Virus genome (UHGV): UHGV-1428848 | Source of the DNA: a virus | DNA: 64,000 nt | Direction: 5' to 3' (one strand) | Shown here: piece by piece, positions 701 to 61,193 of the stretch | Numbering within the stretch: the stretch's first letter is position 1 | Layout of the letters: each line of letters begins with the position of its first letter | Program-made: the position numbers and the translations under genes | Notes under the pieces: model-generated | Database searches by the model: none | What the model saw: the letters and a program-made list of their open reading frames with translations, nothing else | What the model was told of the DNA's origin: nothing

Positions 701-1336
701 TCACAGTTCAGATGCTACAGTGATTACAGCTTCAATGATTTCTGCCGAGCGTTTAATGTCAAGATACACATTACCGTTTTTAGCGATTTTACATGACATT
801 CCGATATCAGTAAATTTCTGAATATGATGTTCCATCATTTTGTATCCAAAAATTCGCATATTTCCATTGTTGTTAATTTCAAAATTGCGAATTCCATGTG
901 TACGTTTTTCTAAAATGGCAAGATAATTACTACGATAAGTTTCAACCTTTTTAAGAACAAATCCATTTTCATCTAGCAGTTTTAACATGAGATCTTTATC
1001 TTCTTCCATATCGGAAGTAATCTCGCGAGCTTTACGAGTAGCACGTTTTTTCAGAAGTTCTGGAGCATTTTCTTGCGCATATAAAGTTGCTGCGTTTGAA
1101 ATAATATCTTGCGCTTCGCCTGTGATGATTAATCCATCACCTGATTTCTCCACCAGGCCTTTTTTAATCAATACCCCAATATTACTATTAACTACTGCGT
1201 TACCTAAATCTGGATGCACCTCACGAACTTCTGCAGCTGTAATGAAATCTTTCTTAGCAATAGTAATTAAAATCGCAGCAGTTTTTTCATTCAGAACATC
1301 GTTAGAAGCTTTGATGATGTAAGTTACTTTAGACAT
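701..1336 (-). CDS. motA: MotA, middle-mode transcription activator
   Basis: 211 aa, same length as T4 MotA; sits directly downstream of gene 52 as in T4; preceded by an early promoter. Confidence 0.8.
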   Translation of the reverse strand: MSKVTYIIKASNDVLNEKTAAILITIAKKDFITAAEVREVHPDLGNAVVNSNIGVLIKKGLVEKSGDGLIITGEAQDIISNAATLYAQENAPELLKKRATRKAREITSDMEEDKDLMLKLLDENGFVLKKVETYRSNYLAILEKRTHGIRNFEINNNGNMRIFGYKMMEHHIQKFTDIGMSCKIAKNGNVYLDIKRSAEIIEAVITVASEL

Positions 1337-1370
1337 TTTAATCTCCGTTTCAGTTCATTTATTTGATAGT

Positions 1371-1403
1371 TGTATAGTACCACAGTATGCTTTGGTTGTA
1401 AAC
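1371..1403 (-). promoter_or_regulatory. T4-type early promoter
   Basis: On minus strand GTTTACA - 17 bp - TGGTACTATA, ~35 nt upstream of motA ATG. Confidence 0.55.
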
Positions 1404-1422
1404 CGTTTTGTGAAAAAATTTT

Positions 1423-1454
1423 TGAAATAAAAAAGGGAGAGCCGAGGCTCTCCC
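1423..1454 (-). terminator. intrinsic terminator hairpin with U-tract
   Basis: GGGAGAGCC-TCGG-CTCTCCC stem-loop followed by TTTTTTATTTC on minus strand. Confidence 0.5.
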
Positions 1455-1459
1455 TAAAA

Positions 1460-1609
1460 TTACTGCATGACTGTGATAACTATCATGATAACACGTTGAA
1501 TTCCGAACGCAAGAAGACCTCCTGCTACGGCAGGAACAACACCTAAACCCGCCAGTAAAATGCCACCAGATACTAATGCAGCGCTTGTGATACCAATGAA
1601 TGGACTCAT
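1460..1609 (-). CDS. small membrane peptide (49 aa)
   Basis: Hand-translated: MSPFIGITSAALVSGGILLAGLGVVPAVAGGLLAFGIQRVIMIVITVMQ; ATG overlaps gene 52 stop. Confidence 0.4.
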   Translation of the reverse strand: MSPFIGITSAALVSGGILLAGLGVVPAVAGGLLAFGIQRVIMIVITVMQ

Positions 1610-4386: not shown

Positions 4387-4486
4387 AGTAAGCGTTTAAT
4401 ACATCAATCATTAAAACGATTGGGAATATACTCAAAACTATTAGTATTATAACTACATTCCATATAGCTTTAACAATCTTTTTCAT
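4373..4486 (-). CDS. small membrane peptide (37 aa)
   Basis: Internal ATG of ORF 4373..4621 lying just downstream of an early promoter and GGAGGA SD; MKKIVKAIWNVVIILIVLSIFPIVLMIDVLNAYFGFM. Confidence 0.35.
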   Translation of the reverse strand: MKKIVKAIWNVVIILIVLSIFPIVLMIDVLNAYFGFM

Positions 4487-4511
4487 TTTCTGTTCCTCCG
4501 TAGTTGATAGG

Positions 4512-4544
4512 GTAATAGTACCACGGAAGAACAGTCTTGTAAAC
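4512..4544 (-). promoter_or_regulatory. T4-type early promoter
   Basis: Minus strand GTTTACAAGACTGTTCTTCCGTGGTACTATTACCC then SD GGAGGA. Confidence 0.55.
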
Positions 4545-4729
4545 AACTTTTTTAAAAATATTCGTAATAAATGTGAATACCAATCACTACTGCCGAAACT
4601 TGTGCAACCCACCACGCACAAGCAATAAGTACAGAATTAAAAATTTTCATAATAACCTCATCACAAAAGTAAATGTTAAACAAATTACTGGAATACTAAT
4701 TAACCAAACAAAACACCACCATAGTGAAC

Positions 4730-4993
4730 TCATAACTCAATCTCAGCGATTTTCATTTCATTACTATTAATAGCCGCTTTAAGACTATCTGAAAGAATTA
4801 CATTCCAGTGGTCATTCATATGACCATTAACTAAGCGTGTAATTTCTTCGGGAGTTGAAAAATAAGGCGTATCAGACTCCCAATGCGATAATCCTAAGCG
4901 AGTATAAATCATACCTTCATCATCGCTAGAATATTCAACTGACACAAACTCATCAGTTATTTTATGTTTAGCGTAATAAAATTTAAATTTCAT
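4730..4993 (-). CDS. hypothetical protein (87 aa)
   Basis: Internal ATG of ORF 4730..5053 placed after promoter/SD; the N-terminal extension in the track is the translated promoter sequence. Confidence 0.45.
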   Translation of the reverse strand: MKFKFYYAKHKITDEFVSVEYSSDDEGMIYTRLGLSHWESDTPYFSTPEEITRLVNGHMNDHWNVILSDSLKAAINSNEMKIAEIEL

Positions 4994-5018
4994 TTTCCGC
5001 TCCTCCGCAGTTGATAGG

Positions 5019-5051
5019 GTAATAGTACCACGGTCCTTGTGGTATGTAAAC
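5019..5051 (-). promoter_or_regulatory. T4-type early promoter
   Basis: Minus strand GTTTACATACCACAAGGACCGTGGTACTATTACCC then GGAGGAG SD. Confidence 0.55.
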
Positions 5052-5066
5052 AACTTTGTGAAATTT

Positions 5067-5886: not shown

Positions 5887-5904
5887 AATTTACCTTAAAA
5901 CAAA

Positions 5905-5918
5905 AGGGCCGAAGCCCT
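5905..5918 (-). terminator. GC-rich hairpin with U-rich tail
   Basis: AGGGC-CGAA-GCCCT stem-loop, T-rich 3' on minus strand, directly after the 64-aa ORF. Confidence 0.45.
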
Positions 5919-5921
5919 TAT

Positions 5922-6116
5922 TTATTTGAATTGTTCAATTCTTTTCTCTAAACAGTCAGCATAAGATTTCATTGAGATAAACTGCGAAAGTAACAGTTCT
6001 TGCTCAACTGCACTAACTGTTAGAAACTTTGCGCTTTCTAAAAATTTGCTCAGTGCATTAATTTTGAGCATTAATTGATCGTATTCTTCTTTTACTCGTG
6101 CTTGATAACCTAACAT
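5922..6116 (-). CDS. hypothetical protein (64 aa)
   Basis: ORF track; C-terminus ...EQFK duplicated from rIIB C-terminus. Confidence 0.4.
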   Translation of the reverse strand: MLGYQARVKEEYDQLMLKINALSKFLESAKFLTVSAVEQELLLSQFISMKSYADCLEKRIEQFK

Positions 6117-6144
6117 AATTTTCCTTAGTTAAGGGCCGAAGCCC

Positions 6145-7083
6145 TTATTTAAATTGTTCAGTAACGTCTTCAACTACTTCGTATTGACAGGTACGCATTT
6201 TAGCATCGTTGTAATCAATCGGAATTGATACTACATCACGCGGATGTACTTTAACTTTTACAACTCGGCTGGTTGAACTGCCAAAGTGACGAATATAAGA
6301 TTTAGAACACACATGCAGACCACGAGAACAAGTTTGTGTATCATCGTCATTCACACGAGTACGTGGCATTTTAACTACTTTACCAGGACTGTTATCAAAA
6401 GTATTTGAATGACAGTCAAAGTAATTGCTGCGAACTACTTTCCAAGCATAGAAGTAACCATCTTCTGTAATTTCAATATCATTTGCTACCAAGAAATCAA
6501 AAAGTCGAGATACCGCTTTCTGGCTTGGGTTTTCCAGCAGATTTTCCAAGAACGGAAAATAAAATTCAAAGTTTTCGCCTTTTTCCATCGAGTCAAGAAT
6601 ACGATCAACCAAACCAGATCGCAATTCAATATTTTGATAGAATAAGCTTCCACCTTCAATTCGAACATCGCCGGAAATATATTTTTCAACAGCGCGACGA
6701 ACATTAATTTTTTGTGCCGCTTCTTCTAACTTATCTGCTACGAGCAGATTAAGAATTTCCTGGAAGTTTGAATGAGTATTAGGAGTTGCGTTATAAGTTA
6801 CACCGTCAACAGTAATTGAAATGAATTTTTTAGATGCATTCCAAATAATGTCAGATTTAGCAACTGGAGCAATAACTTCATCGCTATTAACTTTAACTGT
6901 AATATCACCGCTAATAGTAACTTTAGGGCGTTTAGCTTCTTCAGCATTTTTCAAAACACGACGGATTGTGTCAACCGATACATCCTTCCAATAAGCTAAT
7001 TCCTGCTGAGTGTAATTACCGCTTGAATACAGTTTAACAATTTCAGCTTGTTCGTTTTTGGTCAGGCATTTAATATTGTACAT
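6145..7083 (-). CDS. rIIB: rIIB protein
   Basis: 312 aa, same as T4 rIIB; directly downstream of rIIA. Confidence 0.85.
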   Translation of the reverse strand: MYNIKCLTKNEQAEIVKLYSSGNYTQQELAYWKDVSVDTIRRVLKNAEEAKRPKVTISGDITVKVNSDEVIAPVAKSDIIWNASKKFISITVDGVTYNATPNTHSNFQEILNLLVADKLEEAAQKINVRRAVEKYISGDVRIEGGSLFYQNIELRSGLVDRILDSMEKGENFEFYFPFLENLLENPSQKAVSRLFDFLVANDIEITEDGYFYAWKVVRSNYFDCHSNTFDNSPGKVVKMPRTRVNDDDTQTCSRGLHVCSKSYIRHFGSSTSRVVKVKVHPRDVVSIPIDYNDAKMRTCQYEVVEDVTEQFK

Positions 7084-9509: not shown

Positions 9510-9541
9510 TAATTATACCACATCCTTGTGGTAAAGTAAAC
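9510..9541 (-). promoter_or_regulatory. T4-type early promoter
   Basis: Minus strand GTTTACTTTACCACAAGGATGTGGTATAATTAATTGG; overlaps the stop of gene 39. Confidence 0.55.
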
Positions 9542-11361
9542 TACTGGCTCATCCATTCTTTACGAAGGTCAGCATTATCTCCCATGAGCATTTCAAAAAG
9601 CTCTTTCCAGTTCTCAGGAAGTTTAACAACATCATATACTGGGTTTTGAATCATCTCACGATATTCAGATTTTTCCAAAGAGCCAAGTCCTTTAATATAA
9701 CGGATGCTATGTTTAGGTAGAGCATCTTTGGCACTCTCATATTCAGCGACTGTATAAAACCATTCTTGTTTTTTACCGACCTGAGCGATGATTACAGGAG
9801 TTTTGACAAAGCGAATTCGTCCTTGCTCAAACAATTCTGGCCAATTACTAAAAAACCCGAGCAGAGAAGGATAAATGCTTCCTAGACCATCATGGTCAGC
9901 ATCAGTCATAATAGCAATATTATGATAATTCAAGTTTTCAGCTTTTTCACCGAGAACTAATCCAGTGATTGCGCAAATATCAAACAGTTCTTTGTTTTTA
10001 AGCATATCAGCATATGACATACCCCAACTGTTGAGAACTTTACCACGCAATGGATAACCACCATGAAGTTCTTTATCACGAACATCAATAAGATATCCGA
10101 TAGCAGAATCACCCTCAGTCAAGAACAATGTAGTATCAGCATCTTTACCACAAAGATTCGCTTTGATATGTTTATGAACTTTAGCTTTAGAAGCCTTTTT
10201 AGCTGCTTTAGTTTCAGCTGCTTTTTCTGCCGCCAATTTACGAGCCAAAGCAGCTTCAATAATTGGCATCAGAATTGCTTCATTATTTAAAATAGCACGT
10301 GAAATCTTTTTAGCGTCAAGTTGAATATGACTACGAATTTCGCCAAATGGAGAAGTCAAACGCTCTTTAGTTTGAGAATCAAATCGCATGTTTTTCATAT
10401 CACGAACAAACATAACGATAGTCAAACATTCTTTGACACGTGCTTTAGTTACATCAATTTTGAACTTACGTTTGATTTGTGGAATAAGGTCTTCACAAAT
10501 ATCATCCATAACACAGTCAATGTGATGGCCACCATTCTTAGTGTGAATGTTATTCACGTAAGTTAATTGACGAAATCCATCCGGCGAACGACCAACCGCA
10601 ATAGAACAATTTTCTTGTTCTTGAACAATAGCATGTTCATCATACTGTCGTGCATATTTCTTAAAATTGCCCTGAACCTTTTTACCATTAAAGGTAAATT
10701 GAATATCAGGATAAACAACAGCAAGTGTCTGGAGACGATCTAGTGTAATATCAAGATAAACTTGGGACAGCTCATTAGTTTCAAATGACATAAAATCAGG
10801 AATGAAAGTAACACGAGTTCCTTTCCATTTTCCAGGAATAGTTTCCCAGGATTTATTTTCCATGCCGTTTGAACAACGAACTACAATATTATTTTGACCA
10901 TCGCCAGTTTCACCGACAAACATCACAGAAAAAATGTTTGTCAAACTAGAACCAACACCATTCATACCACCGGTGACACGTTCTTTATCATCACCAAAGT
11001 TACCACCTGCTTTTGGAATAGTCCACGCAGCAACAGGACCAGGAATTTCTTCACCGGTAGGTGTTTTAACCATCGCTTGTGGAATACCGCGACCATTATC
11101 TTCAACTGTTACTTGATTGTTTTTAATAGTAACATTAATTTTATTTGCGAATTTAAACTTAGTACGAATACCTTCATCTACTGAGTTATCGATAATTTCA
11201 TCAATAAGCTTAACAAGACCAGGTACATACTGAACACTTTCCCATTTACCAAACAGAAAGCGCTCATGCATTTCATTAGCAGAAGAGCCAATATACATGC
11301 CGCTACGCTTTTTGATATGTTCAATATCGCTCAGAATTTTAATTTCATTCTTAATCATCAC
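9541..11361 (-). CDS. 39: DNA topoisomerase II large subunit (GyrB-like ATPase), uninterrupted
   Basis: 606 aa single ORF with GHKL ATPase N-terminus and Toprim region; no gene 60 split or bypass element. Confidence 0.9.
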   Translation of the reverse strand: MMIKNEIKILSDIEHIKKRSGMYIGSSANEMHERFLFGKWESVQYVPGLVKLIDEIIDNSVDEGIRTKFKFANKINVTIKNNQVTVEDNGRGIPQAMVKTPTGEEIPGPVAAWTIPKAGGNFGDDKERVTGGMNGVGSSLTNIFSVMFVGETGDGQNNIVVRCSNGMENKSWETIPGKWKGTRVTFIPDFMSFETNELSQVYLDITLDRLQTLAVVYPDIQFTFNGKKVQGNFKKYARQYDEHAIVQEQENCSIAVGRSPDGFRQLTYVNNIHTKNGGHHIDCVMDDICEDLIPQIKRKFKIDVTKARVKECLTIVMFVRDMKNMRFDSQTKERLTSPFGEIRSHIQLDAKKISRAILNNEAILMPIIEAALARKLAAEKAAETKAAKKASKAKVHKHIKANLCGKDADTTLFLTEGDSAIGYLIDVRDKELHGGYPLRGKVLNSWGMSYADMLKNKELFDICAITGLVLGEKAENLNYHNIAIMTDADHDGLGSIYPSLLGFFSNWPELFEQGRIRFVKTPVIIAQVGKKQEWFYTVAEYESAKDALPKHSIRYIKGLGSLEKSEYREMIQNPVYDVVKLPENWKELFEMLMGDNADLRKEWMSQ

Positions 11362-12886: not shown

Positions 12887-13058
12887 TACAATTTCCTCAT
12901 TAATTGAACATTGGAGCGATGCGTTTCAGAAGAGTAGCAGCACCTTTGGCAAATTTTCCATTTTATTCTCCAAATTATTTTCTATATCAGTAGTTGATAT
13001 TGATATAGTACCATAATCAACTACTGATGTATATAGTTTTATGAAAAAATTTTAAACT

Positions 13059-23280: not shown

Positions 23281-23351
23281 TATTTTTCCTTTCAATTCAT
23301 GGGTTAGTAGATTAATTATACAATAAATATATAAAGCAATAAGGAGGACAT

Positions 23352-31255: not shown

Positions 31256-31648
31256 TCACTTAGTCAAATTTTTTACGCATGAATTATAAGAATTCACTAC
31301 ATACTCCATCGGAGCATTTTTACCAGTACGCCATTGGTAATTATTGGCCCAATTAGCCCAAAGCTCGGCGCAGTAGTTTTCAATTTTTTCTTCGCGTGTA
31401 ATTACATCCGAATTACGATATGCTTGAGCAGATTCATCTGGACGAATAGCTTCGTCAAAATTCGCCTGCATTTGTTCGACTGTTTGCTTTGGAGCTTCTT
31501 TATAACACTTAACATTAGGATTATAAAATTTGCTTGAACAGTTTACAATTTTTCCTGCATCAGACTGATTTACTACCGGTCCTTGAGCTACACAACCAGT
31601 AAGACCTAATGCAATAACTAAAATAGCGATTTTCATTTCATTCTCCAA
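31256..31648 (-). CDS. putative lipoprotein (130 aa)
   Basis: Signal peptide with lipobox LTGC. Confidence 0.5.
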   Translation of the reverse strand: MENEMKIAILVIALGLTGCVAQGPVVNQSDAGKIVNCSSKFYNPNVKCYKEAPKQTVEQMQANFDEAIRPDESAQAYRNSDVITREEKIENYCAELWANWANNYQWRTGKNAPMEYVVNSYNSCVKNLTK

Positions 31649-31670
31649 ATCCGTATCGGTAGTTGATATT

Positions 31671-31703
31671 GATATAGTACCATGGAAGAACAGGGATGTA
31701 AAC
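31671..31703 (-). promoter_or_regulatory. T4-type early promoter
   Basis: Minus strand GTTTACATCCCTGTTCTTCCATGGTACTATATC. Confidence 0.55.
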
Positions 31704-31791
31704 AGTTTTGTGAAAAAATTTTTAATGAATTCAAAGGGTCCAGAATCATCTGTTTTTCATAAGTATAGATTTATATTACTTGTATGAAAAA

Positions 31792-31807
31792 GGGACCCGG
31801 AGGTCCC
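31792..31807 (-). terminator. intrinsic terminator after gene 43
   Basis: GGGACC-TCCG-GGTCCC hairpin then TTTTTCAT on minus strand. Confidence 0.5.
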
Positions 31808-34598: not shown

Positions 34599-34835
34599 TT
34601 AAATTTCTATTGTACGACGCGATATAACGGACTTGCCATCTGTATTTGTGGTTTTGATAATCGCATGAAATGCGCGTTGGCGTGGGTAAACTAATCGTTG
34701 GAATTCTTTTTGGAATTCTATTTGTTTATCTTCCGGGAGGTCAAAAACCAGTTGGGTAGAAGACAGACCATATGTTTGTTTTAGATTTTCGAATATTAGA
34801 AAAGCTTCGGTAAACTGAATCTCTGATTGTGTCAT
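34599..34835 (-). CDS. hypothetical protein (78 aa) between regA and gene 43
   Basis: ATG at 34835 (AAGGTAAA SD) just after regA stop; the 95-aa track ORF would overlap regA by 41 nt. Confidence 0.4.
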   Translation of the reverse strand: MTQSEIQFTEAFLIFENLKQTYGLSSTQLVFDLPEDKQIEFQKEFQRLVYPRQRAFHAIIKTTNTDGKSVISRRTIEI

Positions 34836-34845
34836 ATAATTTACC

Positions 34846-36740: not shown

Positions 36741-36774
36741 AATTTCCTCATTCAAGTTTTAGTGTAAATTATAA

Positions 36775-36788
36775 AGGGCCGAAGCCCT
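36775..36788 (-). terminator. GC tetraloop hairpin after gene 45
   Basis: AGGGC-TTCG-GCCCT immediately after gene 45 stop. Confidence 0.4.
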
Positions 36789-36791
36789 CTA

Positions 36792-37478
36792 TTAAAAATC
36801 GTGGGTAGAATCAGCTTCAAGAGCTACTACATAATTTGCGTGTTCACCTTCAAATTTAGCAGCACCTTGTTTACCTTTTGCCCAGAGTAGAAGTTTATAA
36901 TTTCCTGGTTGCATTTTCATATTTGCCATATTGATAATGAAATTAAATGTATTTTCACCATCATAATCACCAAGAGTCAAAGAATATTTAACACGGGTCA
37001 GAGCAGAATCTTCTACTTTATTAAAACCGTTAATTACGATTTTACCTTCTTTTACCGTGATAGCAATTGTATCAATTTGCAGACCACGAGATACACGCAA
37101 CAGCTGTTGAAGGTCTTCAGCTTTAATTTCAGTAACAACAGATGCTACCGGGAATGGAATTGGTTTATTAGGAGCAACTACTGTACTCGGATCGGCTGCT
37201 GGCCAAAAAATTGTTGAACGAGCATCAGCAATTTTAATATTTCCATCTTCTGACTGGGAAATTTCTGCATCATCATTAACTAAAGACAGAATACCGAGAA
37301 AACCGTTCAAATCGTAAATTGCTACATCAAAATCAATAACGTCAGAAATATTTGCTTCCGCATAAGTTGTACCATTAACTGCGCGAGTCATAATAAATTG
37401 ACCGGATTTAAGCATAATACCAGAGTTAATAGTAGCGAAATTTTTAAGCAGAGCAGTAGTATCTTTAGACAGTTTCAT
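36792..37478 (-). CDS. 45: sliding clamp
   Basis: 228 aa as in T4 gp45; position upstream of 44/62. Confidence 0.85.
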   Translation of the reverse strand: MKLSKDTTALLKNFATINSGIMLKSGQFIMTRAVNGTTYAEANISDVIDFDVAIYDLNGFLGILSLVNDDAEISQSEDGNIKIADARSTIFWPAADPSTVVAPNKPIPFPVASVVTEIKAEDLQQLLRVSRGLQIDTIAITVKEGKIVINGFNKVEDSALTRVKYSLTLGDYDGENTFNFIINMANMKMQPGNYKLLLWAKGKQGAAKFEGEHANYVVALEADSTHDF

Positions 37479-40306: not shown

Positions 40307-41322
40307 TGTGTTGCCTCTACATATAACTGATTTGCATATTGAATAAGTGCTTCACGATCAGAATCAGTGATGTCTGGAATTGCATTAATGTATTCTTCCA
40401 TCAACGTCTGAAGAGATTGAACTTCAACTTCTTCACTGTCATCTGACTCGACAGAGTTATCAATCTTTGACACAACTCGTAATGAATGCACAACTTTTTC
40501 TAGTTCAGATTCGAACTTCGTCAGATTTTTGTCTACTTCAGTTACTATAACACGTACTGATAGATTTGTAAAATCTTTATAGTCAATTTTTCCTTTAAAT
40601 GGATAATGAATTCTACGGTGCCAGGTAGTATTGTTTGGAATAAATTCCATTCGTTCTGTTTCTGTATCAAACATCCAGAACCCACGAGAGTCATTCTCGT
40701 CACCTGCAGTTAGTGTCCATGGTGTCCCAATATATCTGACGTTTGCAGCCTCAGAAATAGTATGGAAGTGACCAGACCACACTTCTTTATAAGTCTTAAG
40801 GAAATCGGGTTCAAGACCGTGAGATTTCATTCCTTTATAAAAATAAAATCCATTCAGTTCCCAGTGACCAACACAAAAAGAAGCAGAAGAAGTTTTTATG
40901 TGCTCGAGAATTTCACCAGTATTTTCTTCACACATCCAAGGAATCAAATCAATTAAACATCCGTCAAAATCTACTGTAGTAGGCTTATCATATACTTTAA
41001 CATTAGGATATTTAGCCAAAAGCTCAGTAGAGGCATTTGGATGCATTACATTTTTGTAGTGGAGATCGTGATTTCCTACAATAGTATGTAATGTGATTCC
41101 AGCATCATCAAGCATTTGAACTATTTCACGAGCAAACTCCATAGTTTTATGCGTGATTGCTTTTCGCACATCAAAAATATCACCGTATTGAATCCAGGTA
41201 GTAATTCCATTTTTCTTAGAATATTCTATCGCTTGTTTAATTCCATCAATTTGAATACCGCGAATCCACTCATCATCAGCTTTAACGCCTAAATGCCAAT
41301 CACCCAAGTTTAGTATTTTCAT
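40303..41322 (-). CDS. 47: recombination nuclease subunit (SbcD/Mre11-like phosphoesterase)
   Basis: 339 aa as in T4 gp47; calcineurin-like motifs (DWHLG, GNHD). Confidence 0.9.
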   Translation of the reverse strand: MKILNLGDWHLGVKADDEWIRGIQIDGIKQAIEYSKKNGITTWIQYGDIFDVRKAITHKTMEFAREIVQMLDDAGITLHTIVGNHDLHYKNVMHPNASTELLAKYPNVKVYDKPTTVDFDGCLIDLIPWMCEENTGEILEHIKTSSASFCVGHWELNGFYFYKGMKSHGLEPDFLKTYKEVWSGHFHTISEAANVRYIGTPWTLTAGDENDSRGFWMFDTETERMEFIPNNTTWHRRIHYPFKGKIDYKDFTNLSVRVIVTEVDKNLTKFESELEKVVHSLRVVSKIDNSVESDDSEEVEVQSLQTLMEEYINAIPDITDSDREALIQYANQLYVEATQ

Positions 41323-41923
41323 GGTGTCTTTTCCATCCTAATTTAGCTGCTTTTGAAACCAGTTCTTTAATTTTTCCTTTTGTCCATTCAGGACCAGGAG
41401 GTTCATGACATAACATTTGCTTAACTCCGTTATTATACCATTTTTTACCTTTATTATGTGATGAAGCTTTAAATTTATTTGACCTTCCTTTTACATAACC
41501 TTCTGGAATATAAGGTAAAAATGCAGATTTTCCTGTTAATGGATCATGTGAATGTATATTTCCTTTACAATTATGAGAACCATATAATGGATGATTTTTT
41601 CCTTTAATATCTCTTCCAAATGAACCTTTTGGAGCAGCATATGACATATTAAAGAATAATGGATTTTTAACTGCATCATGCAATCGTTGATAATATAACT
41701 CGCATTTAATAGCTTCTTCACGCGTATCAAATTCAGCTAAAATGCATGAATCAAATAAGTGAGGATTATCTGAAAGCTCTTTATTATAAATTTTCTTATA
41801 CTTTTTAGATAAAACTGAACCATGATATCCAGCTAAATGCCTATCTAAAGACGTAGATCCAATATAAAAAGGAGGAAGTTTATCTCCACTATATATTGTT
41901 AAATAAGTTATATATTTTTTCAT
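41300..41923 (-). CDS. GIY-YIG family homing endonuclease-like protein (207 aa)
   Basis: N-terminal YITYLTIYSGDKLPPFYIGSTS (GIY...YIG), downstream Arg/Glu, basic C-terminal repeats (GKNHPLYGSHN, HNKGKKWYNNG); 3' end overlaps gene 47 start by 23 nt. Confidence 0.55.
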   Translation of the reverse strand: MKKYITYLTIYSGDKLPPFYIGSTSLDRHLAGYHGSVLSKKYKKIYNKELSDNPHLFDSCILAEFDTREEAIKCELYYQRLHDAVKNPLFFNMSYAAPKGSFGRDIKGKNHPLYGSHNCKGNIHSHDPLTGKSAFLPYIPEGYVKGRSNKFKASSHNKGKKWYNNGVKQMLCHEPPGPEWTKGKIKELVSKAAKLGWKRHHENTKLG

Positions 41924-42061: not shown

Positions 42062-42099
42062 ATATCAAACTCCGTATAAAGCTAAAGGGCCGAAGCCCT
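42062..42099 (-). promoter_or_regulatory. hairpin plus candidate MotA-dependent middle promoter
   Basis: AGGGC-TTCG-GCCCT after a-gt stop, then TTTAGCTTTA - 12 nt - TATAAT on minus strand; same module as upstream of gene 39. Confidence 0.35.
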
Positions 42100-43302
42100 T
42101 TATTTTGTAATAATGTCAAACTGTTCTTTAAAGCAGAAGCTTGAATCTTGGTGCTGATACAAAAATTCATATGCTTTTTCTCGCTCACGGTCATAAAGAG
42201 CTCGGTCAGATGACAGTTCTTTAATACGTTCAAATGTTGATTCCATATCATTTTCATCAAACCAAATGATACCGCTATCATGCGAGGTCAAAGGAGTATT
42301 ATCAACACGGAATTTTAAATTTTCGCCAGTAGATTTCCAAAATACCGGAATTGTTCCACATGCACCAAGCTCGAGATGAGTATATTCTAAAGAGCGCTGT
42401 AGATATTTTTTATCCAACTTACTCAACTGATAACCAAAACCGGATTTACTCATACGTTCAAGCATTTCGCTATTTACATAACGGTCAAGAATTTGCGTTG
42501 GCAAATTAGGAGCAATTTTAATTTGGTCTACTTGATGAAGACGATAATACTCGTATGGAATTCCTTTTTCTTTAATAGGAATGAACGCTGGAGAACGTTC
42601 CAGACCTTCCATAATAGTACTTAGTCCTGCAGGTTTAAGATGTTTTTCATGAAAATCAAACATCTGATAAAAACCTTTCCATGTAGTCGTACGACCAATC
42701 CAACGGTTGATATTCATGTTAATTTCAGAAACATCTTTCCAGTAGGTTGATCGAACCTTCGCAATATCCATAGGAGGCTGAAAGTTATATACGGTCGGTG
42801 CTTCTTCAATATCATCAAACAGAGAAACAGTTTCTGGATACCACTCTTTCATCAGAACTTTATTAAAATCACCATTATCAGAATGGCTAAAAATAACATC
42901 AGCTCGACGAACAGTTTCTTCTAATCCCAAATTTCGACGCAAAGAAAGAGAAGAATGGTCATGCTGATAAACTACAACACGAACAGAAGGTTTAATGTTA
43001 TCAATAATTTTTTTATAGTTATTAATAGTGTCTTCTTCAACCGAAGTAGCAGGAACTGAATTGATAATTAGAATATCACAATCATTTACCAGCTTAAGTG
43101 TTTTATCGTATTCTTTTGCCAATAAAACCGGAATTGAAAATGATTTATAATCATGCGCGCAATTACGAGTAAATGATTTATCTTTAGCATAAACCAAAGT
43201 TACTTCATGACCATTTTTAATAAACCAATCACGTTGCTCGAGTGAGAATTTTGTTACACCACAACCTTCAAGACCTCGAGCCATAAAAATACATACTTTC
43301 AT
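42100..43302 (-). CDS. a-gt: DNA alpha-glucosyltransferase
   Basis: 400 aa as in T4 alpha-gt; position between 47 and 55. Confidence 0.7.
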   Translation of the reverse strand: MKVCIFMARGLEGCGVTKFSLEQRDWFIKNGHEVTLVYAKDKSFTRNCAHDYKSFSIPVLLAKEYDKTLKLVNDCDILIINSVPATSVEEDTINNYKKIIDNIKPSVRVVVYQHDHSSLSLRRNLGLEETVRRADVIFSHSDNGDFNKVLMKEWYPETVSLFDDIEEAPTVYNFQPPMDIAKVRSTYWKDVSEINMNINRWIGRTTTWKGFYQMFDFHEKHLKPAGLSTIMEGLERSPAFIPIKEKGIPYEYYRLHQVDQIKIAPNLPTQILDRYVNSEMLERMSKSGFGYQLSKLDKKYLQRSLEYTHLELGACGTIPVFWKSTGENLKFRVDNTPLTSHDSGIIWFDENDMESTFERIKELSSDRALYDREREKAYEFLYQHQDSSFCFKEQFDIITK

Positions 43303-45685: not shown

Positions 45686-45736
45686 ACATTATCCTCAATT
45701 GCATTAAAATTTTATTATCCAAAAGGGCCGAAGCCC

Positions 45737-45937
45737 TTAGCTAAACTTTTTGGCACCCTTCCAGCCTTCGTACATCATTGCGGCTGATATTAATATTGCT
45801 CCTGAGCAACTTGAATATTTGTGATTCCAAAACCAGTTTAGAAAAACTTCATCATCAATACCTTGGGCTATCATATTTTCAAAGAACTGACGACGAGATT
45901 CGGCAATTCGTTGTGATAATTTAGATTCAGGATTCAT
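45737..45937 (-). CDS. hypothetical protein (66 aa)
   Basis: ORF track; GC hairpin (45722..45737) upstream. Confidence 0.4.
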   Translation of the reverse strand: MNPESKLSQRIAESRRQFFENMIAQGIDDEVFLNWFWNHKYSSCSGAILISAAMMYEGWKGAKKFS

Positions 45938-54965: not shown

Positions 54966-54994
54966 AATAATCTCCTCAGTAGAAAGTAAGAACA

Positions 54995-55023
54995 TTATAC
55001 CACATCCTTGTGGTAAAGTAAAC
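54995..55023 (-). promoter_or_regulatory. T4-type early promoter
   Basis: Minus strand GTTTACTTTACCACAAGGATGTGGTATAATG (near-identical to promoter at 9510..9541). Confidence 0.55.
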
Positions 55024-56042
55024 TAGTTCAGTGCATTTAATGCATTGTTCAGTTTAGAACGTTGCTTTGTCAGATTTTTGACTTTTTCTTGAGCTTTTTC
55101 CAACATCTTTTCAGCTTCTAGCACTTCATTGGTCGCTTTAACGAGTTCATCATCTACTGCCTTAAGGGACTTCTCAATCGCATCCGCGTGCCATTTTTCA
55201 ACAGGTTTAAGACTCGGATTTTCAATAGGAAGAAAATTCACTTTATTGAATTTCCATGCATCTTTATTACCTGAACTATACATCCAAAATTTAGGATCAT
55301 TTGACGAGTAATTAGATAAATTTAAGGTATCTTGTACTTCCTGCTTTTTCTCTTGTGTAACTTCGTCCTTTCTCAAAAAATCGTATTTAAATGAAACGAT
55401 CATATCAAGTTCATATGTTGTTGTGTCTAATTTAAATCGTTCGAAATGCTGTGAAATCTTAGACTGAACTGCAGCAACAACATCCATATACTTAAATGCT
55501 TCTGTCAGCTGTGATTTAAGGCATTCACAAATTGAAAGAGAATTTTTTGTATTAGGTTTAAAGCTAATTCGTGCAGTTCTATTATTTTCTTTTAATGGTC
55601 TTACTTCCATCTGAAGAGTATAACCATCAAATTTCAGATTCTTTAAGTTAATATCAGAGCCTTTTAATCGACTAGCCGTCGACAAAATTTGCTTTAATTG
55701 TTTACGGAATAGAGCAATAAATCTCCACTCAAGACGATAATGATTTGGATTAAAAAATCCAGATGATAAATCGACCTTACTCTGACCAACACCTTGAACA
55801 AACAGAGGATTTTTATAATCAATAGTTTTACAGAAATCGGTGAGCTGCTCACGAGCAGTCATTTGTGTAATATACCCCGCTTTACTAAAATGACGTAACC
55901 ATTCACTGCTATTCATATATTTAAAGTGAATATCACGATTAACTTTATCAGGGTCTAAATTATTTTGGCACAAAAATGTCATAACATCACGAGTATAGCT
56001 GGCATTACGAACCATATCTTCAATTTGAGAACGAGTTTTCAT
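55023..56042 (-). CDS. coiled-coil paralog family member 3 (339 aa)
   Basis: MKTRSQI..., central FRKQLKQILSTASRLKGSD, C-terminal coiled coil. Confidence 0.55.
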   Translation of the reverse strand: MKTRSQIEDMVRNASYTRDVMTFLCQNNLDPDKVNRDIHFKYMNSSEWLRHFSKAGYITQMTAREQLTDFCKTIDYKNPLFVQGVGQSKVDLSSGFFNPNHYRLEWRFIALFRKQLKQILSTASRLKGSDINLKNLKFDGYTLQMEVRPLKENNRTARISFKPNTKNSLSICECLKSQLTEAFKYMDVVAAVQSKISQHFERFKLDTTTYELDMIVSFKYDFLRKDEVTQEKKQEVQDTLNLSNYSSNDPKFWMYSSGNKDAWKFNKVNFLPIENPSLKPVEKWHADAIEKSLKAVDDELVKATNEVLEAEKMLEKAQEKVKNLTKQRSKLNNALNALN

Positions 56043-57410: not shown

Positions 57411-57936
57411 ATGCGAGTACCGTCTTTAACCGTTCTTCAAACTTCCGAAGAGTATTCTGGCGTTCAGCTCTTTGCTTTTTGTAAGTTTCAATACGCTCTG
57501 AAATGAGAGTGTATCGTTCATTTACTGATTCTTTCATAAAATCAGGAATTTCACGAGAAGCTTTAATCTCGTCAAATTTATCAATAACAGCTTGCTCTTC
57601 AGCAATTAAGTTATCATACATCAAAATATCTTTCTTGATGAACTCAATATCTTCTTGAGTTACACGAGATAATTTAGATGCTTTATCCTTTTTGTACTGT
57701 TCGTTAGTATCACGAGACCAGTGTAATGTACGATTTTTATTCGTATTCTTGTAAATTTCTACAATACCAATCTCATCGATAATAACGATCCAATTCCAAC
57801 GAGATTTGTAAATTTGTCCTCCGTCAACCGTGATTTCACCTCCAATTGAGATGTCATTAAAGAACTTACTTTGTGCTTCAGATTTAAATTTACCATCGTT
57901 GTAATTTACCAGGTTGAAAATATCTTTAGCGTTCAT
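57409..57936 (-). CDS. hypothetical coiled-coil protein (175 aa)
   Basis: ORF track; C-terminal coiled coil. Confidence 0.5.
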   Translation of the reverse strand: MNAKDIFNLVNYNDGKFKSEAQSKFFNDISIGGEITVDGGQIYKSRWNWIVIIDEIGIVEIYKNTNKNRTLHWSRDTNEQYKKDKASKLSRVTQEDIEFIKKDILMYDNLIAEEQAVIDKFDEIKASREIPDFMKESVNERYTLISERIETYKKQRAERQNTLRKFEERLKTVLA

Positions 57937-57962
57937 TTTGTGTTCCTCCGTAGTTGATAGTT

Positions 57963-57994
57963 GTATAGTACCACAGAGGAACAGTCTTGTAAAC
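57963..57994 (-). promoter_or_regulatory. T4-type early promoter
   Basis: Minus strand GTTTACAAGACTGTTCCTCTGTGGTACTATACAAC then GGAGGA SD. Confidence 0.55.
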
Positions 57995-58380: not shown

Positions 58381-59100
58381 TTAGGATTCTTCTAAATGTC
58401 TTTTCTGAAAAGTTGATACCATACTACGATACGGTTCATTTGGATACCCGTGTTTTATAGCTTCCTTTGTAAATTTTCTCCATCCATATTTAGTTTCTTT
58501 CCAAAGCTCGAATAATTCATCTTCATATTGCCATATAGTTAAATGAGAACGCTTTGCAGCTTTAATTCCATTAATATGCTTTTCTTTTACTACAGGATTG
58601 CTTAGTTTCTTTTTAATAATATTACTAACTTTTCTAACAAAAACTGGGTCCTTATATCGTTGCGAAGTTTTTATTGAAGTGTTTAATTTAGCTTCCGGCG
58701 TGGATGTGACCTCTTTCATCTTTTTCTTCATATGCTGTATATGATTAGGATTTTTCCATAAATTTATAGAATGCTTTTTGCATTTTATCCTAGTTTCATC
58801 TGCAACCTTTCCTCCTTCACCCCCGTATGACAGGTTAACACAGTTTTTTCCATATTTCAATTTACCTGCCATGATATATAATATTTCAGCTTGTACCATT
58901 TTATCATAATTATCAAAAACTTCTAAAACCGTTTTTGATAATATGTGGTCATTTGACACTTTTACACGTTCTATATAATTTCCACTACCAACATACGAAT
59001 CATTGATGTTATTAGTTATATGTCGACCATAATAGTATTTCTTAATACCTGTCTTTAAATTTAATATTTCAGTTTTATAGATAGTAAAATATTTTTTCAT
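58381..59100 (-). CDS. GIY-YIG family homing endonuclease-like protein (239 aa)
   Basis: N-terminal YFTIYKTEILNLKTGIKKYYYGRH...YVGSG; Lys-rich C-terminal half typical of HEG DNA-binding domains; ATG overlaps AAA+ gene stop. Confidence 0.55.
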   Translation of the reverse strand: MKKYFTIYKTEILNLKTGIKKYYYGRHITNNINDSYVGSGNYIERVKVSNDHILSKTVLEVFDNYDKMVQAEILYIMAGKLKYGKNCVNLSYGGEGGKVADETRIKCKKHSINLWKNPNHIQHMKKKMKEVTSTPEAKLNTSIKTSQRYKDPVFVRKVSNIIKKKLSNPVVKEKHINGIKAAKRSHLTIWQYEDELFELWKETKYGWRKFTKEAIKHGYPNEPYRSMVSTFQKRHLEES

Positions 59101-60077
59101 TTTAATAATACCGTTTCAGCGATTTCTTCCCAACCGTTTTTGTCGGTCATAATAAAGTCAGCAAGATAAAGAGCAGTACGCAGTGAAACATTGCGTAAAC
59201 GATTAACATTGACTTTCATCCATGATAATGCTTTATAAGTTTCTTCATCAGAAAGACCGCGCTTTTGCATCATGTCAGTTGAAAGAATAACATCTTCAAC
59301 CCTGACCATAATTTCTTCATTAGTGTGAACACCCAAATCCAAATAAACTGAGCGGGACACTAATGCTTGTAAATGTGGAGCAAGTTTAGTACCACGGTCT
59401 AATTCGCGGTCAATGTCAACGTTTGTGATAAAAACAATAGTTCCTTTAAATTCAAACTCACGCTCAATGCCTTTTTCTTCTAAGTAAGAAGATGCGGTGC
59501 TCCAGCAGACTTTACGGGTCTCTCCAGTGTCCAGAGCAGCTTTCAGAAGATTAAGAATGTCCATATCAGAGAAAACATCCACATCATCAATCAAAAGGAC
59601 AGAATTCTCTTCACGATTATTCCAAAGCTGTTCATAAAGACCGATACCGGAGATTTTACCGTTAATGCTTTTATATTCAATGTATCCAATATCATTTGCT
59701 TTATTTAAAGCTTTATCTAAAGAATACGTTTTACCAATACCCGCCGCACCAGAGATAATTAATGAACGAATATTTCCATTAATAATACCATTCGTCATCA
59801 TTCCCATAACATTAAATCTTTTATTAATGCGGGTTTTCATATCTTCATACGATTCTTTAACTTCTTCAACTTTTACACCATCATATGAAATGTCTGATTT
59901 GTAAACCCAAACACCGCGACGTTTACCGTCAATTTCAACAAAAACTTTACCATCTCCTTGTGCATCTACCGGAGCATTATCAGGGAACCACTCACCTAAG
60001 AGTTCAAAAGTTCCAGAGATTTCTTTACCGAAGTAGATACCCTTATTAATAGTTACAGTTTTCATTTTATTCTCCAA
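59097..60077 (-). CDS. AAA+ ATPase (326 aa)
   Basis: Walker A GAAGIGKT, Walker B LLIDDVD, sensor FITN; N-terminal ~100-aa extra domain. Confidence 0.6.
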   Translation of the reverse strand: MENKMKTVTINKGIYFGKEISGTFELLGEWFPDNAPVDAQGDGKVFVEIDGKRRGVWVYKSDISYDGVKVEEVKESYEDMKTRINKRFNVMGMMTNGIINGNIRSLIISGAAGIGKTYSLDKALNKANDIGYIEYKSINGKISGIGLYEQLWNNREENSVLLIDDVDVFSDMDILNLLKAALDTGETRKVCWSTASSYLEEKGIEREFEFKGTIVFITNVDIDRELDRGTKLAPHLQALVSRSVYLDLGVHTNEEIMVRVEDVILSTDMMQKRGLSDEETYKALSWMKVNVNRLRNVSLRTALYLADFIMTDKNGWEEIAETVLLK

Positions 60078-60098
60078 ATCCGTATCAGTTAATAGTTG

Positions 60099-60129
60099 TA
60101 TAGTACCATAAAGCTTTATGCTTGTAAAC
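60099..60129 (-). promoter_or_regulatory. T4-type early promoter
   Basis: Minus strand GTTTACAAGCATAAAGCTTTATGGTACTATACAAC. Confidence 0.55.
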
Positions 60130-60158
60130 CGTTTTGTGAAAAATTTTTGAAATAAAAA

Positions 60159-60178
60159 AGGGAGCCCGAAGGCTCCCT
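60159..60178 (-). terminator. intrinsic terminator after nucleotidyltransferase gene
   Basis: GGGAGCC-TTCG-GGCTCCC then TTTTTTATTTC on minus strand. Confidence 0.5.
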
Positions 60179-60179
60179 A

Positions 60180-61193
60180 TCATTTATAATAACTTCGGTG
60201 GTTTTCAAGATAGACCTTCTCAAGGAAGTCATCCCAGAAACTCATGTCTACTTTTTGCTGCATACCGTTCTTAGAAGCTTCAGTAGATGCTGCTTCTACT
60301 TGATCGACCACATCTTCCAAAAACTCTTGAACTGTTTTAAATGGATGCTTACCCAACTTCACGTCGAGAATAAATGGAGCATCTTGGAGTGGATAAATCA
60401 AGTCGCCAGTTTTGTAAATTTCCAATAGTTGGAGTCCACCACGACAAGCATGGCTCAGAGCTTTCCAGTCAATACCTTCATTAGCTTCGGCTTTACGAGC
60501 ACGTTCACCATATTCAGCATCTAATTTGTTCAGTGACTGCTTAAGCTCAATAAGAGAAAGCGTTGTCTGATATTTACGACCCAATACAGTGTAGAACGTT
60601 TGTGGACCTGTTTTCTCATGATTATGGAACACCCATTCACAGAATTCGTTTTCTGGAAGACGATGCTTAATATCTTCAACTTTAGTGCGACGCTGCTTAA
60701 TAGAACCATCTTCTTGGTAATCAACCCATTGCTCAGGGATTTGATTAACTACTTTCAATACATCGCGTAATGCAGCCAAACGAGAACCCTTGACACCATA
60801 TTTAGAAGCTTGCTTGCGAACATATCCTAAATAGGATTTCATGTTAGTCGTATAAAAACGAGAACGGTTGTCTTGAATAAACTTCCACACGTCAGGCAAA
60901 TCAGATTTAACCACTAGTTCAGGTGGAGTGTGAAGCATATCCAATGCTACAGTTTCACCATCTGCTGCTAATTTAAAGAAATACTTAAGACTATACAATT
61001 CGTGGTCAATATCATCTTTAGTGTTTTTAGATGATGTGTTGTTGGTATTTTTACTCATATGCTCTTTAACATTTCCGATAAGAATATCACGAGCAGGAGG
61101 AACAAAGATTTCTTTAAAATCTACATCAGATTCTGGAGTAGAAGTTCCATAAAGATGGCTACCAAAATAGCTTTTCATTACTGTTTTCATCAT
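60180..61193 (-). CDS. Pol-beta superfamily nucleotidyltransferase (337 aa) with helical C-terminal domain
   Basis: N-terminal GSHLYGTSTPESDVDF (GS-x9-DhD minimal NTase motif) plus downstream DDIDHE acidic site. Confidence 0.55.
   Translation of the reverse strand: MMKTVMKSYFGSHLYGTSTPESDVDFKEIFVPPARDILIGNVKEHMSKNTNNTSSKNTKDDIDHELYSLKYFFKLAADGETVALDMLHTPPELVVKSDLPDVWKFIQDNRSRFYTTNMKSYLGYVRKQASKYGVKGSRLAALRDVLKVVNQIPEQWVDYQEDGSIKQRRTKVEDIKHRLPENEFCEWVFHNHEKTGPQTFYTVLGRKYQTTLSLIELKQSLNKLDAEYGERARKAEANEGIDWKALSHACRGGLQLLEIYKTGDLIYPLQDAPFILDVKLGKHPFKTVQEFLEDVVDQVEAASTEASKNGMQQKVDMSFWDDFLEKVYLENHRSYYK

Follow-up and report, generated by a model that had tools for sequence, protein, structure and literature searches.

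Two paralogous early promoter-terminator cassettes at the motA and nrdC.10 sites of a T4-like phage genome, probable short homology linkers for small ORF modules

The stretch of viral DNA analyzed here (64,000 nt of UHGV virus genome UHGV-1428848, hereafter the window) carries two closely similar intergenic segments, one ahead of motA and one ahead of nrdC.10. We consider it probable (roughly 0.8) that both are paralogous immediate-early cassettes of the T4 type within the promoter-early stem-loop (PeSL) class, and that their conserved blocks serve as short homology linkers for ORF modules. PeSLs, described by Arbiol et al. (2010, PMC2839356) and Comeau et al. (2014, PMC4122927), are composite intergenic elements found in T4-like phages; in the model proposed for them, recombination between elements shuffles ORFs, and mini-circles have been demonstrated in RB49/phi1 (PMC2839356, PMC4122927). 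A role in the gain and loss of modules is assigned to the present cassettes because of comparative evidence at the motA and nrdC.10 sites.

The window reads as part of a Tequatrovirus (T4-like phage) genome with its early genes on the minus strand. Over its first 6 kb and from 58.5 to 62 kb it matches many Tequatrovirus genomes, among them AV121, BW-1, AR1 and RB32, at 96-98% identity. Aligned to T4 (NC_000866), the window extends from arn.3, at about 162.3 kb in T4, past the origin of the T4 coordinates to about 58.9 kb and is collinear with it except for 17-18 indel or replacement events. Nearly all genes lie on the minus strand, on which the cassettes are also read. The dam DNA adenine methyltransferase region (about 0.9 kb in T4 and about 1.4 kb in AV121) is missing at window 23320-23341, and two segments, 34599-34845 (245 nt) and 41322-41917 (594 nt), are present in the window and absent from T4, AV121 and BW-1.

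Copy 1 (1334-1455, minus strand) comprises the motA.1 terminator and the motA early promoter. It lies between motA.1 (CDS 1460..1609, stop codon 1460-1462, minus strand, placed from the annotation of the BW-1 and T4 orthologues) and motA, the gene that it drives (CDS 701..1336, minus strand, from annotation with the start codon read in the sequence). Folding and a terminator scan both point to an intrinsic terminator at 1434..1455, a hairpin AGGGAGAGC-CUCG-GCUCUCCCU of 9 pairs followed by a T-tract; written as GGGAGAGC-CUCG-GCUCUCCC, it is a 9-bp G+C stem. The hairpin has a folding energy of -20 kcal/mol (z -5.1), is the top terminator-like site in a scan of the first 20 kb, and has the loop CUCG in the window phage and CGAG in T4. 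The T-tract TTTTTTATTTC (about 1424-1434) and the UP element AAAAATTTTTTCACAAAACG (1404-1423), both read from the sequence, together occupy 1404..1433. The UP element spans -57 to -38 relative to the inferred start and fits the UP consensus nnAAAWWTWTTTTnnnAAAnnn, reportedly that of Estrem et al. from 1998, almost perfectly. The promoter core (1374..1403) consists of a GTTTAC -35 (1398-1403), a locus-specific spacer and the extended -10 TGG TACTAT (1374-1382), and transcription probably starts near 1367. With 62 bits this promoter has the highest weight-matrix score in the window, and it is orthologous to the T4 motA promoter, which is said to have been studied by Uzan et al. in 1990. The leader (1337..1373) contains a 23-nt segment, CTATCAAATAAATGAACTGAAAC (1347-1369), and a GGAG Shine-Dalgarno (SD) sequence (1343-1346), and is one position away from the RegB consensus.

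Copy 2 (60063-60177, minus strand) comprises the nrdC.11 terminator and the nrdC.10 early promoter and is located between nrdC.11, a nucleotidyltransferase gene (60180..61193, minus strand), and nrdC.10 (59097..60065, minus strand), which it drives. Its predicted intrinsic terminator, GGGAGCC-UUCG-GGCUCCC (60160..60177), lies 2 nt past the nrdC.11 stop codon and has an 8-bp G+C stem, then a T-tract (-17.4 kcal/mol, z -3.4), and it carries a C(UUCG)G tetraloop. The T-tract and UP element (TTTTTTATTTC AAAAATTTTTCACAAAACG) occupy 60130..60159, and the promoter core (60100..60129, 58.5 bits) has GTTTAC, a spacer with the 14-nt palindrome CATAAAGCTTTATG and TGG TACTAT. The palindrome is perfect (60107-60120) and kept in every phage read; inverted repeats in or around the spacer also occur at several other early promoters. 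The leader (60066..60099) bears the SD/RegB-type site GGAGAATAAAA with the SD GGAG at 60072-60075. GGAG is found 7-9 nt ahead of the ATG in both motA and nrdC.10, and the leaders of nrdC.10, imm.1 and cef end in GGAGAATAAAA or GGAGAATGAAA, in agreement with the RegB cleavage consensus, given for strong sites as GG*AGRAYARAA (PMC3014915).

From the sequence and the T4 literature, the following mode of action can be proposed. A Rho-independent terminator would end transcription arriving from motA.1 or nrdC.11. A very strong sigma-70 promoter (UP element, -35, TGn, -10) would then be used by the host RNA polymerase immediately after infection, and the transcript would have a short leader ending in a GGAG Shine-Dalgarno sequence that may serve equally as a RegB cleavage site. 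In this way motA or nrdC.10 would form an insulated early transcription unit. In Hinton's review, T4 early promoters are called 'uber' UP/-35/TGn/-10 promoters with additional conserved positions, and at some of them Alt raises activity further by ADP-ribosylating the alpha subunit of the polymerase (PMC2988021). From what is known of these promoters (PMC2988021), it can reasonably be expected that the genes attached to the cassettes would be expressed in a coordinated, immediate-early fashion. In both copies a G+C-rich hairpin precedes a T-run on the coding strand, the pattern predicted for intrinsic terminators, and the claim of the preliminary description that an early promoter lies directly 3' of a terminator hairpin is correct on the coding strand, on the basis of the folds (-20 and -17.4 kcal/mol), of the top rank of the copy-1 hairpin among terminator-like sites and of a strand-specific weight matrix. 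An alignment of 12 cassette versions also supports the anatomy given here.

On the coding strand both copies show the same order of parts: the upstream stop codon, the G+C hairpin, TTTTTTATTTC, AAAAATTTTT(T)CACAAAACG and GTTTACAA, then a 13-nt variable stretch, TGGTACTATACAACTAT, the leader, GGAG and ATG. Each has TTTACA-N17-TACTAT (GTTTAC -35, 17-nt spacer) with TGG ahead of the -10. Near-identical cassettes had been described at 1365-1456 and 60093-60178, about 59 kb apart, and both are found there within about 3 nt; a gapped alignment of the two intervals gives 78 identical positions out of 94 (83%), with exact shared blocks of 26 nt (CTCCCTTTTTTATTTCAAAAATTTTT), 22 nt (TTTTTCACAAAACGGTTTACAA) and 17 nt (TGGTACTATACAACTAT). 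A 20-nt core pattern, with up to 3 mismatches allowed, occurs six times in the window and always in the same orientation, where 0.10 matches would be expected. In a comparison of 18 early promoters within the window (153 pairs), the motA/nrdC.10 pair is more alike than the other early promoters, ranking first over the full 120 nt (75%, z 4.2), first again in the 35 nt that precede the -35 (94%, z 4.7), and only tenth across the -35 to -10 core. The excess likeness resides in the UP element, T-tract, hairpin base, -10 and initial transcribed region and not in the spacer; the two hairpins differ in sequence and have only the stem base and T-tract in common.

Much of this identity is explained by function, namely by near-consensus UP elements, promoter hexamers and SD/RegB sites. 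One possible explanation is that the likeness is purely functional: selection would hold or drive two strong early promoters and two generic stable terminators to the same optimum, recombination would have no special part in it, and indels would reflect the tolerance of any gene junction. The shared blocks do coincide with the UP consensus, the -35, the TGn/-10 and the SD/RegB site, and the spacer is divergent and locus-specific. Nevertheless, the identity extends into sequence that has no assigned function, namely the linker ATTTC between T-tract and UP element and roughly 20 nt past the start site, where ACAACTATCAACTACTGATAC is common to both cassettes in T4 and EP01. In these two phages the likeness of the motA and nrdC.10 cassettes continues through the leader (ACAACTATCAACTACTGATACAGA), and the two are essentially identical over about 95 nt, the spacer excepted. 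Together with the module borders, the shared module and the imm.1 patch described below, this makes a purely functional origin of the likeness rather unlikely in our view.

The 13-nt spacers, CCAAAGCATACTG at motA and GCATAAAGCTTTA at nrdC.10, are locus-specific and constant across the window phage, T4 and EP01, and therefore no recent homogenization of the whole cassette can have taken place. Conversion of the whole cassette was also considered and rejected, as homopolymer lengths and the C/T before the A-run do not co-vary among the window, T4 and EP01 and the spacers are locus-specific. The two cassettes are best described, from these comparisons, as old paralogues in which functional blocks have been kept alike and which have not been homogenized as whole units.

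Two dispersed, near-identical short segments in the same orientation might also suggest a recent segmental duplication, a copied mobile element or an assembly artefact. This is extremely improbable. The two cassettes lie at the very same intergenic positions in T4 (NC_000866), and EP01 and hundreds of further genomes likewise have both at the orthologous sites; in addition, the flanking genes are unrelated, the spacers differ, and terminal inverted repeats and target-site duplications are absent. Recent duplication and a mobile-element origin were rejected on the ground that the copies are conserved at orthologous sites.

The first line of evidence for the linker role comes from the motA site. 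In KarlGJung, AV121 and many other phages, which have the motA.1 terminator and promoter seen in the window, an ORF of 75 aa (ORF75; phrog_10955, function unknown) comes next, and after it a second early promoter and motA. The insert is bordered on both sides by the 23-nt direct repeat CTATCAAATAAATGAACTGAAAC. The ORF75 module occurs in 138 records, 120 of them at at least 99% identity, and in the five genomes whose coordinates were compared it lies inside the motA intergenic region. At its motA site the window has a single promoter and a single copy of the 23-nt segment, with the motA SD after them. With a junction-specific query, phage a48 was the only other record to match this single-copy junction at 100% identity, while the other 138 records match in two separate places. 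The motA leader of the window is unlike the common empty-site allele of T4, EP01 and BW-1; a motA leader shared between BW-1 and the window was considered and rejected, the BW-1 leader being of the T4 type. The arrangement in the window is the product expected from a crossover between the 23-nt repeats. In view of this, of the leader type and of the rarity of the junction, we take copy 1 to be a rare derivative, by deletion, of the ORF75-bearing form, in which the present junction would have been left by loss of the 75-aa ORF module; that the event was a deletion rather than an insertion is judged solely from allele frequencies. In IMG/VR viral contigs, exact matches to the cassette pattern were limited to three loci, each of them at the motA site, too small a number for analysis at population level. 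Elsewhere in the window, no homologue of the module ORFs is present.

The nrdC.10 site varies as well. In an evenly spaced sample of Tequatrovirus rows, about 10 of 25 have extra DNA between nrdC.11 and nrdC.10, and the insertions of four phages were read in detail. The window and T4 have no module there, ESh33 has ORF66, 232Ecol030PP has ORF49 and ORF87 (DUF4031), EP01 has ORF161, and AV121 has ORF161, ORF49 and ORF87. An identical promoter, including the spacer, drives nrdC.10 in the window, T4 and EP01, ORF66 in ESh33, and ORF49 in 232Ecol030PP and AV121; it stands behind the nrdC.11 hairpin in some phages and behind a different hairpin, that of ORF161, in others. In AV121 the ORF161 module is bordered by a direct repeat of about 38 nt covering the T-tract, the UP element and the -35, and removal of ORF161 at this repeat yields the arrangement of 232Ecol030PP. 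The ORF161 product is ADP-ribosyltransferase-like (phrog_832, E 7.5e-24) and 30% identical to T4 ModB. It is a short ModA/ModB-like paralogue of 161 aa, encoded at L010 1271-1756 (AV121), L013 795-1280 (EP01) and L020 8526-9010 (BW-1); in BW-1 it is annotated as two fragments and may be a pseudogene. Immediately downstream of nrdC.10, a GIY-YIG/SegE-like homing endonuclease gene (58381-59100) is present in the window, AR1 and RB32 and not in T4, AV121 and BW-1, and represents a second, independent source of variability beside copy 2.

That module borders fall inside cassette blocks, with direct repeats of 23-58 nt on both sides, argues against a purely functional likeness. Each module here also ends with or abuts a hairpin, and Arbiol et al. 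raised the possibility, for the G-rich stems of RB49/phi1, that a dedicated site-specific recombinase targets the stem-loops and moves ORF cassettes in an integron/attC-like manner (PMC2839356). For the present cassettes we regard this as very improbable: the hairpin sequences vary by cassette (GGGAGAGC, GGGAGCC, GGGGCC), the junctions map to the T-tract/UP block or to the leader rather than to the stems, and no integrase-like gene is found among the annotations read. In the cassettes read, the hallmarks of integrons and transposable elements are thus missing, as the hairpins differ, the junctions lie in the UP block or leader and inverted terminal repeats are lacking. In the linker reading, conserved blocks that recur at many gene junctions would act as short homology linkers, by which small promoter-bearing ORF modules may be gained or lost, a mechanism that we infer from the comparison of genomes.

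The two sites are linked by the ORF75 module itself. Salmonella phage Melville (Gelderlandvirus) encodes an ORF75 homologue (63% amino acid identity, E 5e-33) between nrdC.11 (82% identical to T4) and nrdC.10 (76%), that is, at the site of copy 2. The Melville block containing it is bordered by direct repeats of about 58 nt that include the -10, leader and SD, and its leader (CAAATAAATGG..AAAC) resembles the leader bordering ORF75 in Tequatrovirus. A third homologue (70%) occupies another promoter-flanked site in a Klebsiella phage. The occurrence of the same module at both sites in different genera again speaks against a purely functional likeness. It is possible, though we hold it only tentatively and lean against it, that the motA, nrdC.10, imm.1 and cef subfamily are docking sites for a common pool of promoter-bearing mini-genes, which would hop between loci and genera through homologies of 20-60 nt while ectopic short-patch conversion keeps the sites alike. 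The distribution of phrog_10955 fits such docking: Tequatrovirus carries it at the motA site, Gelderlandvirus at the nrdC.10 site and a Klebsiella phage at a third one. If true, this would be an integrase-free, integron-like system, measurable in hundreds of genomes.

To list the early promoters, a strict pattern was followed by a weight matrix built from T4-type promoters. The matrix finds 19 minus-strand sites (17-62 bits), the maximum on the plus strand being 5.1; a generic search for sigma-70 hexamers cannot tell promoters from background in such AT-rich DNA (87 sites vs. 82.7 expected). The partial copies that had been proposed at 31663-31730 and 12982-13050 are real, corresponding to the imm.1 and cef promoters, but weaker, with ungapped identities of 70% and 65%, respectively. 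The imm.1 early promoter and leader (31637..31723, minus strand) have a UP element, GTTTAC at 31698-31703 and TGG TACTAT at 31674-31682, with the gene 43 terminator (31790-31807) about 65 nt further upstream. The cef promoter and leader (12966..13055, minus strand) have a degenerate -35, ATATAC, and TGG TACTAT at 13005-13013.

Segments are shared among these promoters in different combinations. The UP block is common to motA, nrdC.10, imm.1 and cef; the -10/initial region ACAACTATCAAC to motA, nrdC.10 and the promoter at 57994; the -10/initial region ATCAATATCAAC to imm.1 and cef; and the spacer AGACTGTTC.TC to the promoters at 4544 and 57994, which differ downstream. This sharing appears as a patchwork that does not fit a single tree. 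At imm.1, T4, AV121 and BW-1 have ACAACTAT and the window has ATCAATAT, three clustered substitutions (31663-31685) that make 25 nt identical to cef (12994-13016), 18.7 kb away; the cef promoter has ATCAATAT in all four phages (window, T4, AV121 and BW-1). The imm.1 patch is likely to be a short ectopic gene-conversion patch, and the clustered 3-nt change to identity with the cef promoter is a further point against a purely functional likeness.

Several other arrangements were seen among the early promoters of the window. The sites 9512-9543 and 54994-55025, 45 kb apart and with unrelated flanks, share a promoter core of 32 nt (GTTTACTTTACCACAAGGATGTGGTATAAT + 2 nt) at 100% identity, and in the core region this is a tighter pair than motA/nrdC.10. 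At two early promoters (4478-4540 and 57928-57990, minus strand) the promoter spacer and the Shine-Dalgarno region downstream of it form the two arms of a stem of 15 bp or 14 bp (-22.7 and -20.2 kcal/mol, z -6.5); the ribosome site would be masked in transcripts that read through from upstream, whereas those from the local promoter would start inside the loop. The logic is that of some T4 late genes, and the arrangement matches a PeSL subclass with the stem-loop across the -10. In the ndd.4/ndd.5 region, a segment of 246 nt (4762-5009) not found in T4 is enclosed by two tandem early cassettes (4482-4548 and 4989-5055), which are spaced by 507 nt and have 81% identity over 67 nt; according to the legend of Fig. 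6A in Comeau 2014, the ndd.4/ndd.5 locus is an example of PeSL exchange (PMC4122927). Hairpins of the form AAGGGC-UUCG-GCCCUU (minus-strand reading) stand at five gene junctions (5904-5931, 6131-6158, 36774-36801, 42085-42112 and 45723-45750) and are of the stable C(UUCG)G type typical of T4 intercistronic regions. A search of the window against Rfam gave no match at the gathering threshold.

In order to see how far indels are associated with early promoters in general, the window was compared with T4, AV121 and BW-1 by collinear chains, merged to 27 indel or replacement events. No enrichment near early promoters was found: 6 of the 27 events fall within 100 nt of the 19 promoters, compared with 23/119 (0.19) of gene junctions (P = 0.43). 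Many of the 27 events are homing-endonuclease insertions (mobA, mobB, mobC, mobD and seg genes). In four events the breakpoint lies inside a cassette, three of these in the motA/nrdC.10/imm.1/cef subfamily (hypergeometric about 0.016, a post hoc value on small numbers). The insertion at imm.1 is bordered by only 8 nt of identity (ATGAAAAT) and not by cassette homology. A general importance of the cassettes for indels is not supported statistically in this window, and both the missing enrichment and the 8-nt microhomology at imm.1 speak for the purely functional explanation. The proposal that the cassettes are substrates for recombination and modular exchange is supported locally, by nucleotide-level junctions that relatives have at both cassettes, but window-wide indel enrichment is absent (P = 0.43).

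Size considerations further restrict what the pair can do. A crossover between the direct copies would delete about 59 kb with essential replication genes (43, 41, 45 and others), and the pair is therefore not a productive deletion substrate; exchange would have to use small modules or short conversion patches. None of the exact blocks common to the two copies (26, 22 and 17 nt) reaches the length of roughly 50 bp that PMC2839356, citing Singer et al. 1982, gives for efficient T4 recombination.

The cassettes organize the immediate-early expression of T4-type phages, and under the PeSL model they allow a phage to test small accessory genes while the units next to them stay undisturbed. Many of these genes probably serve in host takeover or anti-defence, an example being the ADP-ribosyltransferase-like ORF at the nrdC.10 site. 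The PeSL concept dates from 2010-2014 and rested at that time on three genome pairs, and we found little follow-up in the literature since. New here are junctions at nucleotide level at two named cassettes, the finding that different genera have one module at either site, the window's own single-copy junction, and a test for enrichment across the window whose negative outcome tempers the general PeSL claim. With more than 500 (roughly 560) Tequatrovirus genomes, the PeSL model becomes quantitatively testable.

Several known systems can be compared with the cassettes. Reportedly, C(UUCG)G-type stable hairpins in T4 intercistronic regions were described by Tuerk et al. in 1988; copy 2 is alike in its G+C stem and U-tract, while copy 1 differs in its loop (CUCG; CGAG in T4). 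Lambdoid morons and integron cassettes are similar in that single genes with their own promoter and/or terminator are added between resident genes. However, morons are not thought to move via their regulatory sequences, and integrons need an integrase and attC sites, neither of which is seen in the window cassettes. The likeness to T4 early promoters is close, comprising the UP element, GTTTAC -35, TGn and -10 and the orthologous motA and nrdC.10 regions of T4, with no functional difference; in the window phage, a leader of the type associated with the ORF75 module has taken the place of the motA leader.

PeSLs of the PST/T4 type have the promoter TTTACW-N17-TAYWAT with a stem-loop just upstream of it, and end at the SD and start codon (PMC4122927). 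Both copies have this promoter, and both share the upstream sequence AAAAATTTTT(T)CACAAAACG at 94% identity over 35 nt. Stems of 9 bp and 8 bp with a T-tract, predicted from folds to be terminators, precede the promoters, and both copies end at the SD and start codon of the downstream gene. Neighbouring ORFs vary between close relatives, with ORF75 at motA and four module combinations at nrdC.10, even though the window-wide enrichment test is not significant. The window cassettes thus share with PeSLs the stem-loop/terminator, AT-rich upstream region, early promoter, SD and start codon, as well as the insertion, deletion and replacement of small ORFs between two such elements. In contrast, the RB49/phi1 elements have near-perfect TTGACA/TATAAT and polyG/polyC stems, often within the promoter. 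Mini-circles have likewise been demonstrated for RB49/phi1 only, whereas here the products are inferred from single-copy junctions (window and a48) set against 138 module-bearing genomes. The window pair also differs in being 59 kb apart with flanks in essential-gene territory, in that copy 1 drives the core regulator motA and not an ORFan, and in that indels are not statistically enriched at such elements in the window. The recombination and exchange interpretation of the preliminary description is in effect a rediscovery of the published PeSL model, and the feature combines known T4 biology with a known class of element, to which it adds useful new examples rather than a new kind of element.
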